A DNA stretch of 64,000 nt from the NCBI GenBank assembly GCA_051531975.1, contig JAOPTT010000016.1:88927-152926 (forward strand). The letters run 5' to 3'. Shown in pieces: positions 1 to 6,000 of this stretch. Made by a program: the position numbers. This DNA comes from Spirochaetaceae bacterium (GTDB lineage Bacteria; Spirochaetota; Spirochaetia; DSM-2461). How positions within the stretch are numbered: the first letter of the stretch is position 1; each line of letters begins with the position of its first letter.

Positions 1-3000
1 AAACATTTTCTCGTCGAAAAGTTTGTTATAAATAAAAAACCCACTTTTCAGTGGGCTTTTTTGGGTTCTAAGTATAACTACAGTCTAAATAATAGATCTT
101 CATATGATGGGAAAGGCCACATATCTTTGTCTGTAATAGTTTCTAGTTTATCAGCATGAGATCTAACGATATCCATTGCTGGAAGTACTTCGTTTGCATA
201 ACATGTTGCTTGAGCAAATAGGTCTTCTTCTAAAGTTTCAGCTTTAGCATGAATAGCATCTAAAGATTCAACACTATTCATTAGTCCAGATAATTCTTCG
301 CTTAATGTAGCAATCAATTTTTCTTGACCAGTTGTATTTGCGTTAGCTAATACAGCTTTTAACTCCATAACTGAGTTTGTTAATGTAGATAAATACTCAA
401 TAACTGCAGGAACAATAGATCTTGTAGCCATTTCTGATGTTATATTTGCTTCGATGTTAATCTGTTGTGAATATTGCTCTAAATAGATAGCTTTTCTGGC
501 TTCTAGTTCAGGTTTAGTAAAAACGTTGTGCTTCTTAAATAACTCTACAGAGTAGTCTTTAGTTAATTCAGGTAATGAATCAACAGTAGTTCTTAAGTTA
601 GCTAAACCTCGTTTTTCAGCTTCAGGTAACCACTCTGCACCATAACCATTACCATCAAATATAACTCTACCATGGTTTTTGTAACAGTCAGCAACAATAG
701 CTGTAACTTCAGTGTTAACATCAGATGCTTTCTCTAATCGAGCAGAATATTTAGTTAATATCTCTGCAACAGTTGTATTTAAAATAACGTTTGGTCCAGC
801 AATAGATTGACTTGAAGCAACCATTCTAAACTCAAACTTGTTAATAGTAAAAGCAAAAGGAGATGTTCTATTTCTATCAGTTGCATCTTTTGGAAGGTCT
901 GGAAGAGCACTAACACCCATTTCAAACTTTTCACCTTTAGTATTCTGAATAACTTCACCTTTAGAAATCTTTTCCAGTACTTCAGTTAATTCTTTACCTA
1001 AGTAGATTGAGATTACAGCTGGAGGAGCTTCGTGTCCACCTAGTCTATGGTCATTCCCAGCATTTGCAGCACTCATTCTAAGTAGTGGTGCATATACATC
1101 TACAGCTTCAATAATTGCAGCTAAAAACAGCATAAACTGAGTGTTTTCTTGTGGGTTTGTTCCAGGGGAAAGCAAGTTTACGCCTTCATCAGTAGCTAAT
1201 GACCAGTTATTATGTTTACCTGAACCGTTAACACCTGCAAATGGTTTTTCATGCATTAATGCAACCATGTTATGTCTCATTGCAATTTTTTTCATAGCTT
1301 CCATTGTTAATTGGTTTCTATCTGTTGCAACATTTGCACTATCATAAATTGGAGCTAACTCAAACTGGTTTGGAGCAACTTCGTTATGTTGTGTTTTAGC
1401 ACTAATACCAAGTCTCCATAACTCATGGTTTAAATCTCTCATGAAATCAGCAACTCTATCTTTAATAACACCAAAGTAGTGGTCTGATAACTCTTGACCT
1501 TTAGCAGGCATTGCACCAAATACTGTTCTACCAGTTAATAATAAGTCAGGTCTTTTTTCAAAATATTCTTTATCAACTAAGAAGTATTCTTGCTCAGGAC
1601 CAACTGATGCAGTTACTTTCTTTGCTGTATTGTTTCCTAATAAATTTAAAACCTTTAAAGAAGCAGTATTGATCGCTTCCATTGATTTTAATAGAGGAAC
1701 TTTTTTATCTAAAGCTTCACCTGTATAAGAAAAGAAGGCAGTAGGAATACATAATGTAATACCTGTATTGTCCTCTTTTAAGAAAGCTGGAGATGAAACA
1801 TCCCATGCAGTATAACCTCTAGCTTCATATGTATCTCTTAAGCCACCATTTGGAAAAGAAGATGCATCTGGCTCACCTTTTATAAGTTCACTACCAGAGA
1901 ATTCCATAACTAATGAACCGTCAATACTTGGATCAATGAACGAATCATGCTTCTCTGCAGTTAACCCTGTTAATGGCTGGAACCAGTGAGTAAAGTGAGT
2001 AGCACCTTTAGATATTGCCCAGTCTTTCATAGCTGCTGCAACAACATCTGCTGTCTCTTTACTTAATTCTAATTCACCATTTTCAATTCTTAACATCTCT
2101 TTGTAGATTGTCTTAGGCAATTTATATTTCATTACTTTGTCACTAAAACAGTTTGATCCGTAGATCTCTTCAACATTTACATTACTCATATTTACTCCCA
2201 AAAAATTATTTCATATTTTAATAAAGATAAACCGGATGTGAATCCGGGTTTTTACCAAACATTGTTAAATCGTCCATTCGAGTTATCTTTTTACCATTTA
2301 ACATCGCAAAAAGGCATCTCTCAATACCTAATCCACCACCCATTGTAGATGGGAACTGTGCCTTACCATTTTTATCCTTTGCATTTGCAGCAGCAAGGAA
2401 AGGGCCATAACCCTCTAGTTCTTCAATATTCTCAATTTGACCTTCGTCAAAAATTGGTTCAGATTTTATTATCTTGTTGTCAATTAACCTTTTAATAATA
2501 GGTTCGTATAACCACTCTCTGATTGCACCTGACATAACTTCGTATGCATCACCAAATGTTCCATCGGCCTGTATACTTTGAGCACAAAGATCATAGTTAA
2601 AAATATTCTCAGATTTAAACTCTTTAATAGCTTTTCTTGATCCATCTTTGTTAATATAAGGATAGATTAGGTCATAATTTTCTCTCATTAAACCTGTAAT
2701 CCAGAAGAAAGGTGATTTTGCAACTTTTGCAACACTAGCTTCCATATTTTTTTTACCATATTTTTCTGCTACTTCATCTTTTGTATAACGTGGAAATGGT
2801 TTAGTTGGTATTTCCATTTTTACACCTAAATATTCTAGGTTTTCAGCGTTGTTTTCCTTAATAGTTGTTACAGCTGCTATCATCATATCTTCAAAAAAAT
2901 CTATAGCACCGTTCATATCTTCTGTGCTTTTTCTAAAAACTTCATCATGATTATTTAAATAGTCATCATAGGTTATATAAGAATCTCTTCTCCACTCTAT

Positions 3001-6000
3001 ATCCATCTGTGAAAAGTCTATTAAATACTTTTTTCTTTTTTCTCCATTTGGTGATTCTAACTCAAGTCTTATGTTTGGTGAGTCAATAAAGATACCTTTC
3101 ATTTTTGGATTAAAACAAGCCAAAAATTTAGAATAGATCATAGAGTGTGTAGTTCTATACGGTATACCTTTATAACTAATTGTAGGTGAATGTTCAATAT
3201 CATGTGCTAATGGATCAGTAACTGGACTCATAGAGACACGTTCAAGATTAAATAAGCCTTTTTTTGTAAGGTAATTTTGCATTGAGTTAACAAGAGACGT
3301 TCTAATCGCCATTGCGTGATAAATAGTATCTCCTGTCCATTTATTAACATAAGTATCTTTAATAAATCCTTCAAGTGAATCTCCACCCTGTCCAAGCATT
3401 GCTTGAAAACCGTGTAATCCTTCTCCTATTTCTCTTTCCATGTTACAGTCTCCTTAATTATATATAAGCATTTTATGTGCCAATTTATTATTTAAAAGTA
3501 AAAAAAATACATTCAATCTATGTAATTCATTTCCTGGTATGAACTTATGGGAATATAATGAATTCGTATTATATATGTTCAATAAATTGCCCGTGAAATA
3601 AATCACTACTTTAACTACATATATGTAGTATTATGACATATAACATACAAAAATGTAAGAACTGAGTAAATACTTATCGTTTAAAGTAAATATATGAAAT
3701 ATATCTTACATAATTGTAGGTTTGTATCTATCTAGTCACATAATGTGAATCTTGCAGATTATATTTAGAAACTCTTGTTCCAATCTGACGTTCAGTTATA
3801 CCTAAACTTCTTGCAGCTGCAGCCCTGTTCCCTTTTGTATTTTTTAAAGTTTCTATTAACATATCTTTTTCAAGAGCTTCTACAGCCTCTTTTAAAGTTG
3901 ATGTGTTTTTTGTATTTGAAGAATCAGCTGACTGTAAACTTGGAGGTAGATGATATCCATGTATTACTTGATCTGAACTTAAAAGTACAGCTCTTTCAAT
4001 ACTGTTTTCAAGTTCTCTTACGTTTCCAGGCCAATGATAAGATGTAAATAGTTCAATGGCTCCGGAAGAGATTCTTTTAACAGTTTTGTTATTTTTTTTA
4101 TTATATTTCTCAATGAAATGGTCACATAAAGATATAATATCAGTTCTTCTCTCTCTTATTGGTGGAATTATGATTGGGAATACATTTAATCTATAATAAA
4201 GGTCTTCTCTAAATATTCCATTTTCTATCTCGACTTCTAAATTCCTATTTGTTGCAGTAATTATTCGTACATCAACTTTAACCAAATTGGATCCACCAAC
4301 TCTTTCTATTTCACGCTCTTGTAATACTCGTAAAAGTTTTACTTGAATCATTGGAGATAGTTCCCCAATTTCATCTAAAAAGATAGTTCCACCATCAGCT
4401 AATTCAAAACGGCCTTTTCTGCTAGAAAGTGCACCTGTAAATGCACCCTTTTCATGGCCAAAAAGTTCACTTTCAATAAGGTTTTCAGGTAGGGCCGCAC
4501 AATTGACTTTAATAAAAGGTTTGGATGCTCTTAATGAGTTATAATGTATTGCATGAGCTACAAGCTCTTTACCTGTACCACTTTCTCCTCGGATCAAAAC
4601 TGTAGCTTCTGATTTTGAAACTTGATTAATAAGAGTGAATACATCTTGCATCGCCTGGGATGACCCGATCATGTTAGTTGGCCGGTAGGATGCTTGTAAC
4701 TCTTTTTGAAGTCGACTGTTTTCTTCCCGGAGGCGTTGATTTTTTTCTATTATACTCTGTCTTAAATGTACATATTTAGCGATCATTGAACATATAATTG
4801 CTAATAATTTCAGATCTTCATCGATATCTTCAATGTTTAGGTAAACTTTATCCATACTAAATGCACCAATTGTTTCGCTTCCATGAACAACTGGAACACA
4901 AATGAAAGAGACTCGACTACTACCTCTTGCTCTTTTTTGTCTAGTTTTATCTAAAAATTCTGGAGATTCTTTTATATCTTTAACAACTATAGGGTTTCCT
5001 GATTGAATTACAGCACCTGTGATACCTTCGCCTGGTTTATATGTTGTCCTTTTTTGCTGATTTTCAGTTAAGTGAACAGATGTTTCTATTGTTATTTCGT
5101 TAGTTTCTCTATTTAAAAGTGCTAAGGTACCGTGTCTCATACCTAGTCTATCTGATAATTTTTCTAAAATTGGTGTAATTATTTCATGTAACTCACGGCT
5201 TTCATCTAAAGTTTGGCTTATTTCAAAAAGCAGGGTTAATTCGTCAATTTTTTGTCTATAGTGGTGAGATTTTGTTGGCATAGTCGTTATTATGTGATTT
5301 TGCGGAAATAATTTCAATATCAATGAATTGATCGGTAATGTTTGTTGCATGTTTTCTCTCCTAAAAAAGCTATCCCTACACAAAAGTAGGGATAGCAAAA
5401 ATACGTTTTATTTATATTCTTTTTTAAATTATGATTTATTAACCAATAGCGTCAGTACCTTCCTCGCCACTTCTAATTCTTATAGTTTTTTCAATTGGTA
5501 AGACAAATATTTTTCCATCACCAATTGCCCCTGTTCTAGCACCTCTAACAATTGCTGCAGTTGTTTTTTCTACAAAATCGTCATTTACTGCTATTTCAAT
5601 TCTCATTTTGTCTAATAGATTTACTTCAGTTTCAACACCTCTGTAAGACTCAACAAAACCTTTTTGTTGTCCACAACCTTTTGAAGTAGTTATGGATATT
5701 TTATGAATATCATCTTTAAATAACTCTTGTTTAACTTCGTTTAACTTATACGGTTGTATATATGCAATTATCAATTTCATCTTTTAGCTCCCTTTTTATA
5801 CGTTGTGGAATATCTGGAATCCAGGGTACGACTCAGTACCATGCTCTTCCATATCTAATCCTCTGATCTCTTCTTCTGGTTTAACCCTAAGACCCATTGT
5901 TAATTTAATAATTAAAAATAGTGCCCCAGCTGTTAATGTTACCCATAGAAATGCTATTACTACACCAAGTGCTTGTACACCTAATAGGTTCCAACCTCCA

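Follow-up and report, generated by a model that had tools for sequence, protein, structure and literature searches.

A predicted archaeal-type asparagine synthetase from an enlarged bacterial branch at a sigma54 nitrogen locus of a Spirochaetaceae bacterium

What might a stand-alone class IIb synthetase core do between a sigma54 promoter and a glutamine synthetase gene? Such a protein, of 407 aa, is encoded in the 64,000-nucleotide window of a Spirochaetaceae genome analysed here, and a first-pass annotation had predicted a bacterial ammonia-dependent asparagine synthetase of archaeal type. The function part of that prediction gained support from the tree, the conserved residues and the linkage to asnS, while its novelty was overstated, as RefSeq already carries named proteins of this type from bacteria. 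We conclude that the 407-aa protein is most likely an archaeal-type (AS-AR) asparagine synthetase that works without tRNA, as judged from sequence, predicted structure and gene context.

The gene and its predicted operon

The sole Pfam match of the 407-aa protein is PF00152 (residues 42-387), with no OB or anticodon domain, in agreement with its earlier description as a class IIb core. The ATG of glnA-III lies 28 nt past the stop codon of the 407-aa gene, and the genes for a sigma54 activator, PII and Amt lie upstream on the same strand (Table 1). The activator scored 542 bits against the nifA profile TIGR01817, which passes the cut-off of 528.85. Composition gave no signal of foreign origin, with a GC3 of 0.21 for the 407-aa gene and 0.15-0.22 for its neighbours. 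One metatranscriptome of the possible source sample, present as contigs only and possibly containing DNA, held six short contigs mapping to glnA-III, the 3' end of the 407-aa gene, the activator and amt; one of these (2077-2332, depth 3) crosses the junction between the 407-aa gene and glnA-III. Given these limits and the single sample, none of these contigs was counted as evidence.

Table 1. Features around the 407-aa gene (positions in the window)
Feature	Position	Strand	Remark
Terminator-like hairpin and T-run, 3' of glnA-III	33..62	-	judged by eye
glnA-III, glutamine synthetase type III (GSIII_N, Gln-synt_C)	78..2189	-	ATG 2189 likely start; open frame extends to TTG 2201
AS-AR-type asparagine synthetase-like protein, 407 aa	2218..3441	-	~410-aa bacterial branch member; class IIb core without anticodon domain
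Sigma54 -24/-12 promoter-like site, TGGCAC-N5-ATGC	3468..3482	-	26 nt before ATG of 407-aa gene
TACA-W4-TGTA dyad 1, candidate activator (enhancer) site	3616..3627		putative binding
TACA-W4-TGTA dyad 2	3646..3657		candidate, motif
TACA-W4-TGTA dyad 3	3707..3718		candidate, motif
GAF-AAA+-HTH sigma54 activator, NifA-like	3728..5353	-	probable activator of the 3468..3482 promoter
PII protein, GlnK/GlnB-like	5439..5780	-	domain and family profiles
Ammonium transporter Amt	5796..7109	-	domain and family profiles
Sigma54 site before amt	7137..7151	-	6/6 scored positions
TACA-W4-TGTA dyad upstream of amt promoter	7317..7328		motif

Genome-wide searches confirmed that the organism encodes its own AsnRS and AspRS, and also AsnB, as well as an EpmA and rpoN. 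AsnA and GatB were not found in the genome, and the AsnA profile PF03590 matched neither the genome nor the 407-aa protein.

Family placement and active site

The best PDB sequence matches were the Pyrococcus AS-AR structures 1nnh (E 3.6e-12) and 3p8t (E 7.4e-12), with a profile E-value of 3.4e-17. This agrees with the earlier claim that the closest solved relative is the Pyrococcus enzyme. Identity to E. coli AsnA is 14%. Foldseek also ranked AS-AR first, with target TM values of 0.80 and 0.78 to 3rl6 and 3reu as reported before, and placed AspRS third rather than first as the annotation had stated. It is VIA-align that puts archaeal AspRS on top (Z 28.7, rmsd 2.6, 296 aligned) and AspRS/AsnRS cores above AS-AR (Z 26.6), a ranking that counts against the AS-AR reading; archaeal or non-discriminating AspRS and AsnRS cores share the fold throughout, at Z 26-29. 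The predicted structure has low confidence (pLDDT <50) in two active-site loops, 74-85 and 125-141, which we also counted against the reading.

Profile and tree comparisons separated these families further. The best NCBIfam matches were PRK06462.1-4 (E 2e-38) and then PRK06462.1-1, with AspRS far behind (5e-6). Curated cut-offs were nevertheless missed, at 132.2 bits versus 309 for NF005054 (PRK06462.1-4), which we counted against the reading, and 62.1 versus 368 bits for NF005052; four representatives of the ~410-aa branch likewise fell short of both. The AspRS/AsnRS family test failed as well (25.7 versus 368.4 bits, no N-terminal OB anticodon domain). Among full-length outside relatives of about 290-440 aa retrieved by profile search, PRK06462 was the best match for 36 of the 37 scanned, the remaining one being a GatB-AspRS fusion. 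In a 31-row tree, from which AsnA, EpmA and bacterial AspRS were left out, six branch members (100/100) fell inside AS-AR, separate from seven aminoacyl-tRNA synthetases (100/100), and constraining the branch with AspRS/AsnRS was rejected (p-AU 0.007). A 62-row quick tree agreed, with E. coli AsnA (branch 5.45) weakly attracted (76) to the ~410-aa branch. By these sequence comparisons, the 407-aa protein nests within the AS-AR family PRK06462, apart from AspRS/AsnRS.

The VIA-align ranking, and the match of residues 173-234 to T. kodakarensis AspRS, could be taken as signs of a tRNA-charging AspRS or AsnRS core that acts with an anticodon domain in trans or on a special tRNA. We regard this as highly improbable, because such a grouping fails the AU test, the AspRS motif QSPQ is replaced by the HSMI type of AS-AR, and full AsnRS and AspRS are encoded elsewhere in the genome; the OB domain is absent, and no longer or fused form was found among 3113 candidates, a weak negative. 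AspRS/AsnRS cores differ further from the 407-aa protein in having an OB anticodon domain and in lacking the TDP loop Asp and D257.

At E<=0.001 the 407-aa protein has 1078 homologues, the same number as counted before. The best 120 of these 1078 are 405-463 aa long, share 57-84% identity, carry 11 phylum labels (mostly of uncultured anaerobes) and are currently labelled 'hypothetical' or 'aspartyl/asparaginyl-tRNA synthetase'. No relative was found on viral contigs.

With archaeal AS-AR ('AsnRS2'; P. abyssi 3P8T/3REU/3RL6, P. furiosus 1NNH; NF005054) the protein has in common the stand-alone class IIb core, 27-28% identity in structural alignment, and the motifs TDP, HSMI, SPNIRLE, F-x-Q-x-D-x-E, RE-x-YD and E-x-x-SG-x-x-REW. 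Compared with the 294-aa archaeal enzyme, it has additional helical sequence at the N-terminus and is enlarged by inserts near 153-173, 260-276 and 325-340. It also stands on a branch of its own (length 1.24), whose genes lie next to asnS or within sigma54 operons for nitrogen metabolism. Sixteen active-site positions are invariant in 278/278 distinct branch sequences: D76, S100, K105, R125, E127, F143, Q145, D147, E149, R253, Y256, D257, D284, E301, R308 and R375. Counted by hand along the alignment, their P. abyssi equivalents are, in the same order, D47, S75, K80, R99, E101, F114, Q116, D118, E120, R191, Y194, D195, D206, E215, R222 and R267, residues whose individual roles are in part presumed. 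E. coli AsnA (PF03590; 11AS), which presumably catalyses the same reaction, aligns at Z 23.5, with its R100, E248, R255 and R299 on R125, E301, R308 and R375 and its Q116 and D219 on Q145 and D257. The D257 column holds Asp in 25/36 AS-AR-like proteins and in 0/8 aminoacyl-tRNA synthetases. In the consulted part of a Leishmania study, the pair D222-Q118 is described as substrate anchors that are replaced in yeast AspRS (PMC3532385), and we infer that D257/Q145 is its equivalent. Against AS-AR-type activity we counted the motif-2 His (P. abyssi His110), which is Tyr139 in all 278 sequences; Tyr also occurs here in 4/36 AS-AR-like proteins.

That bacteria can carry the archaeal-type enzyme is not new. 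The name 'asparagine synthetase A' is given in RefSeq to Streptomyces WP_331752329.1 and WP_311314781.1 and to Methylobacter WP_194972149.1, and these anticodon-less AS-AR-type proteins, unlike the 407-aa protein, pass the PRK06462 cut-offs of NCBIfam. Of the named relatives compared, the one from Methylobacter comes closest (30.5% identity across 370 columns, E 2e-33), rather than the Pyrococcus enzyme. These bacterial proteins are shorter (about 325-340 aa) and have no nitrogen-assimilation neighbours; they are encoded next to genes for cobalamin mutases, in two cases inside an NRPS cluster. Since the key residues are equally present in them, these residues cannot tell Asp from a close analogue.

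Predicted nitrogen control and gene neighbourhoods across relatives

The 407-aa gene has the sequence features of a putative sigma54 nitrogen regulon member. Eight of the 25 genomic copies of the TACA-W4-TGTA dyad lie within 300 nt of a sigma54 site, where about 1.3% would be expected, and the two elements pair at five promoters, namely those of the 407-aa gene, three amt genes and nifH. A sigma54 site at most 159 nt upstream of the branch gene was present in 21 of the 78 GTDB loci with enough flank, versus 1% of random windows, much as the annotation had counted (22/81); it was found in 0/20 same-phylum loci. In three same-genus genomes the same promoter stands directly before glnA-III, without the 407-aa gene between, so the promoter here is probably the ancestral glnA-III promoter, behind which the 407-aa gene would have been inserted. 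The layout reported earlier, a sigma54 operon headed by this gene with GS-III behind and amt-PII and a NifA-like activator nearby, is correct for this locus, but is a local arrangement.

Nitrogen-assimilation genes (GS/GOGAT/Amt/PII/GlnD) were found at 42/80 GTDB loci and 43/80 metagenome loci, against a background of 152/5056 (3%) 17-kb windows of this genome. Neighbours in the 80 GTDB loci were GS-III (13), GS-I-like (13), GltB (17), Amt (13), PII (14) and GlnD (12), and GS or GltB lay on the same strand within 250 nt of the gene in 26. The earlier counts (GS-III 24, GltB 12, Amt 8, PII 7 in 81 loci) differ from ours, and the loci may not be the same; the 24 is close to our total of 26 for GS-III and GS-I-like. 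That the family keeps a nitrogen context holds for about half of the GTDB loci, and the same-phylum genomes have another context, with the branch gene directly upstream of asnS in 13/20 and near ND-aspS/gatB in 4/20. The nitrogen-assimilation genes together with asnS and ND-aspS/gatB point to asparagine.

The company of GS, GltB or asnS in many loci, together with the conserved surface inserts, would also suit a non-catalytic or protein-directed paralogue, either an Asn/Asp sensor subunit for GS, GOGAT or AsnRS (as HisZ for HisG) or a protein aspartylating ligase (as EpmA for EF-P); HisZ- and EpmA-like paralogues do exist, according to the consulted part of PMC9437257. We consider this very unlikely, as the motif 2/3 arginines and amino-acid pocket residues are invariant, the partner varies by lineage (GS, GltB, PurF, asnS, gatB), and the protein nests within AS-AR in a genome that has an EpmA already.

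The same adenylation chemistry with another donor or acceptor deserves somewhat more weight, although it too seems unlikely: the nitrogen might come from glutamine, with or without the help of a neighbouring amidotransferase, or from some other amine, or the acid might be an analogue of aspartate, with a different amide as the product. Trypanosomatid AS-A enzymes accept glutamine besides ammonia, in the consulted parts of two papers (PMC3854871, PMC4714757). At 8/80 loci the branch gene is preceded on its own strand, at a distance of no more than 450 nt, by a gene for a PurF-like class II amidotransferase, the branch carries conserved inserts, and the mutase neighbours of the nearest named bacterial relatives suggest methylaspartate. 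However, no mutase genes (glutamate-mutase context) were found in 180 branch loci or in this genome (positive control 180/180), the PurF-like neighbour has a phosphoribosyltransferase domain of its own, and the asnS and gatB linkage points to Asn itself.

In 9/50 and 2/21 carrier genomes (two sets), AsnRS occurs without AsnA, AsnB-type or GatB, which leaves the branch gene as the sole candidate Asn source for AsnRS in 11/71 genomes checked, MAGs from few lineages that could be incomplete or auxotrophic. Other routes are frequent among carriers (AsnB-type 34/50 and 11/21, GatB 29/50 and 18/21, AsnA 8/50 and 1/21), and this was counted against the asparagine synthetase reading. AsnRS was not found in 10/50 carriers, genomes for which completeness is not given. 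Mutual exclusion with AsnA was not supported: the overlap was 1/21, with about 3.5 expected from AsnA in 50/301, and 8/50 in the wider set.

Predicted reaction and significance

The 407-aa protein quite probably converts Asp, ATP and NH3 to Asn. ATP would activate the aspartate beta-carboxyl, and ammonia, the presumed nitrogen donor, would attack the adenylate to release Asn, AMP and PPi. The free Asn may then supply the genome's AsnRS, alongside AsnB. From its position between the sigma54 promoter and glnA-III, the gene is expected to be co-transcribed with glnA-III, and under nitrogen shortage a NifA-like activator would switch it on along with GS, Amt/PII and nif. This regulation would be the opposite of that of E. 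coli asnA, which is repressed by Nac according to the title of a cited paper; we counted this against the reading.

The chemistry is not of a new kind, and annotated examples of AS-AR-type enzymes already exist for bacteria; it is the ~410-aa enlarged branch within this known family that is still without a name. A literature search found no paper on the branch, though the primary AS-AR papers (Roy 2003, Blaise 2011) may include homologues from bacteria. With its members labelled 'hypothetical' or synthetase, genome-based models miss an Asn route or miscount synthetases. Rather speculatively, the branch could form a second ammonium-fixing entry of anaerobes, induced with GS and nitrogenase under nitrogen shortage and high-affinity or glutamine-capable, with inserts on which PII, GS or the adjoining AsnRS would dock or exert control, and with fixed nitrogen stored or channelled as asparagine. 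The repeated sigma54 placement raises the question of why an ammonia-consuming amide synthetase would be induced when ammonia is scarce.

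Relationship to archaeal-type asparagine synthetase

In Pfam, the 407-aa protein matched PF00152 alone, and weakly (34 bits, residues 42-387); the search detected no anticodon domain, which bears out the first-pass description of a synthetase core lacking one. Its top NCBIfam matches were both PRK06462 models named 'asparagine synthetase A', which describe the archaeal-type, tRNA-independent enzyme (AS-AR) and which the first-pass annotation had not brought up. They scored 132 bits (cut-off 309) and 62 bits (cut-off 368); the AspRS models scored 26 and 19 bits. As previously claimed, the best PDB sequence matches were the Pyrococcus enzymes (1nnh, E 3.6e-12; 3p8t, E 7.4e-12). 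Searching with an AlphaFold model (47-row alignment, pLDDT 83.7, pTM 0.87; loops 74-85 and 125-141 poorly modelled), Foldseek ranked AS-AR first (3rl6, target TM 0.80), whereas the first-pass annotation had put AspRS marginally first. AspRS came first in VIA-align (1b8a, Z 28.7, rmsd 2.6, 296 aligned, 19% identity). There AS-AR reached Z 26.6 over 281-283 aligned residues (rmsd 2.4-2.6) and was the most similar in sequence, at 27-28% identity; E. coli AsnA gave Z 23.5 and 14% identity. By the modelled fold alone, the three are not separated.

Homology searches with an E-value limit of 0.001 yielded 1078 proteins; among the 120 top-scoring ones, lengths were 405-463 aa and identity was at least 57%. 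A profile search of 1.8 billion representatives returned this ~410-aa branch and, around it, a set of proteins mostly 290-360 aa long. PRK06462 gave the best score in 36 of 37 proteins scanned from outside the branch, the remaining one being a GatB-AspRS fusion (P0257 is such a protein). Cluster members bearing names were mainly archaeal 'asparagine synthetase', and one of the three best ESM Atlas clusters was automatically named 'putative Asparagine synthetase A'. Some proteins passing PRK06462 (P0225, P0175, P0254) are 405-443 aa long with N-terminal extensions; in P0225, from a Heimdallarchaeota cluster, the AspRS-model alignment starts at residue 17, and an anticodon-like domain may be retained.

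In a 31-row tree, from which AsnA, EpmA and bacterial AspRS were omitted as long branches after an earlier tree, the ~410-aa branch (100/100) sat on a long stem within the AS-AR proteins, with the seven aminoacyl-tRNA synthetases (aaRS) on a separate side (100/100). Grouping the branch with the aaRS was rejected by an AU test (p 0.007). The ~410-aa proteins form a genuine bacterial branch of the AS-AR family, conserved, enlarged and so far without a name, and the 407-aa protein is most likely an ammonia-dependent asparagine synthetase. This predicted function stands from the first-pass annotation; its novelty does not, since a PRK06462-type query retrieved plasmid genes of Streptomyces and Methylobacter already carrying the RefSeq name 'asparagine synthetase A', with all three proteins above the NCBIfam cut-offs. 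Bacterial genes of this type were thus already annotated and the predicted chemistry known. The closest named relative among those compared was the Methylobacter protein (30.5% over 370 columns). A literature search returned no paper on the ~410-aa branch; Roy 2003 and Blaise 2011 may list bacterial homologues. We also drew on excerpts of PMC2821294, PMC4714757, PMC9437257, PMC3854871 and PMC6053447.

Active site and mutase-associated relatives

Sixteen positions were invariant in all 278 distinct branch sequences (D76, S100, K105, R125, E127, F143, Q145, D147, E149, R253, Y256, D257, D284, E301, R308, R375) and, counted by hand along the alignment, identical in P. abyssi AS-AR. E. coli AsnA Q116 and D219 align with Q145 and D257, and the D257 position was Asp in 25/36 AS-AR-like proteins and 0/8 aaRS. 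In the portion of PMC3532385 drawn on, the Leishmania D222-Q118 pair anchors the substrate and is replaced in yeast AspRS, and two arginines anchor aspartate in the archaeal enzymes; the latter would be R253 and R308 here. Unlike P. abyssi AS-AR, the whole branch has Tyr139 in place of the motif-2 His and is about 100 residues larger; the additional residues make up an extended N terminus and insertions around 153-173, 260-276 and 325-340, some positions of which are conserved.

The Streptomyces and Methylobacter proteins share the key active-site residues, and their genes adjoin cobalamin mutase genes, two in NRPS clusters. These residues therefore do not discriminate between aspartate and an aspartate analogue as substrate; for the ~410-aa branch, 180 loci yielded no mutase gene. 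The PRK06462 gene and mutase subunits form a cassette (L081:6194-10414, L083:6107-10210, L082:5920-10279), accompanied in the two Streptomyces NRPS clusters by a glutamate-synthase-like FMN protein, which suggests methylasparagine supply. A literature search gave no paper matching this cassette.

The probable glnA-III promoter and its candidate activators

Features of the locus and sigma54-associated dyads (window coordinates unless a contig, C, is named)
Feature	Position	Strand	Basis
Glutamine synthetase III (glnA-III)	78-2189	-	family matches
407-aa AS-AR-type synthetase-like gene	2218-3441	-	open frame, family matches
-24/-12 site	3468-3482
Dyads before 407-aa gene	3616-3718
GAF-AAA-HTH sigma54 activator (NifA-like)	3728-5353	-	family matches
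Terminator-like hairpin and T-run	5363-5396	-	by eye
PII gene	5439-5780	-	family matches
amt	5796-7109	-	family matches
Further dyad in window	7317-7328
Type I asparaginase-like gene	15148-16134	-	TIGR00519, below cut-off
Dyads elsewhere	C3:291456, C7:220095/220125, C12:122397

The 407-aa gene sits under the glnA-III sigma54 promoter. That it heads a sigma54 operon holds as regards the site; in all three same-genus genomes, however, glnA-III itself comes 320-350 nt after the activator gene, preceded by this promoter and by two or three dyads, and the 407-aa gene is missing from between them. The gene was found in none of 30 relatives, 18 of the same family. The simplest reading is its insertion between promoter and glnA-III in this lineage, the alternative being its loss in the relatives. 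Two near-complete relatives have NifA-like matches with stop codons (G351:C1:3084079-3085449, G362:C1:5131802-5133400), which we attribute to frameshifts or sequencing errors.

Three TACA-W4-TGTA dyads lie 134-236 nt further upstream of the -24/-12 site. The genome, which carries rpoN and nifH, has 25 dyad copies, eight of which lie no more than 300 nt from a sigma54 site (expectation about 1.3%), at five promoters: those of the 407-aa gene, three amt genes and nifH. The dyad differs from the NifA site, TGT-N10-ACA; a copy of the latter lies 200 nt upstream of nifH. As there is a second NifA-like gene (50% identical), the activator in the locus remains a candidate for this promoter. Desulfovibrio activator DVU1949 has a nitrogen regulon, according to an excerpt of PMC4641369, in which no dyad of this kind appeared. 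The hairpin between the PII and activator genes falls just before the activator's ribosome-binding site. The asparaginase-like gene is 12 kb away from the synthetase gene and follows a group of 2-oxoacid oxidoreductase-like genes.

A sigma54 site preceded the gene in 21/78 GTDB and 20/80 metagenome loci (background 1%) and in 0/20 same-phylum loci. Nac reportedly represses asnA in E. coli, going by a paper's title. Induction of an ammonia-dependent synthetase by nitrogen limitation would be the reverse of E. coli asnA, and is the main unexplained point.

Gene context and other asparagine routes

GS, GltB/D, PII, Amt or GlnD genes were present in 42 of 80 GTDB loci (the best of 306 genome-collection matches) and 43 of 80 metagenome loci (the best of 326), against 3.0% of 17-kb windows of the own genome. 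The GTDB loci held GS-III (13), GS-I-like (13), GltB (17, one weak), Amt (13), PII (14), GlnD (12), PurF-like (14) and AsnB-like (3) genes, and in 26/80 a same-strand GS or GltB gene lay within 250 nt. This link occurs under 11 phylum labels, related genomes being non-independent. The claim that the family keeps a nitrogen context applies to about half of these loci. Another context marks the same-phylum set, where 21 of 301 genomes sampled carried the gene (excluding four weak matches of AspRS length): in the 20 besides our own, asnS was immediately downstream in 13, and non-discriminating aspS (ND-aspS)/gatB was nearby in four. These cases span four families and may go back to two linkage events. 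Asparagine is indicated by both contexts.

One genome, G164, has two copies (L117, L124), one upstream of asnS and the other after amt-glnK-glnA-III; several further GTDB genomes also have two loci. Some Desulfobacterota-like loci (among them L041:4537-9212 and L075:4450-9212) have asnB and a purF-like gene directly upstream on the same strand, and hence two presumed asparagine synthetases. Many same-phylum genomes have, beside a normal AsnRS, a ~960-990 aa frame with an ND-AspRS-like match immediately before gatB (G183:C96, G258:C4, G295:C54 and G108:C32, among others); in this frame the AspRS-like part is probably fused to a further subunit of the amidotransferase.

The own genome (98% complete) encodes AsnRS, bacterial AspRS, EpmA and a 552-aa AsnB, in line with the first-pass annotation, and gave no AsnA or GatB match. 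The 21 same-phylum carriers comprised 21 with AsnRS, 18 with GatB, 11 with AsnB-type and one with AsnA; G164 (97%) and G238 (91%) lacked GatB, AsnB-type and AsnA. Among 50 carriers of unstated completeness, hand-picked from the 80 GTDB loci, AsnRS was found in 40, AsnB-type in 34, GatB in 29 and AsnA in eight, and nine, from about four lineages, had AsnRS without AsnA, AsnB-type or GatB. The gene can be the sole candidate asparagine route, yet it is usually redundant.
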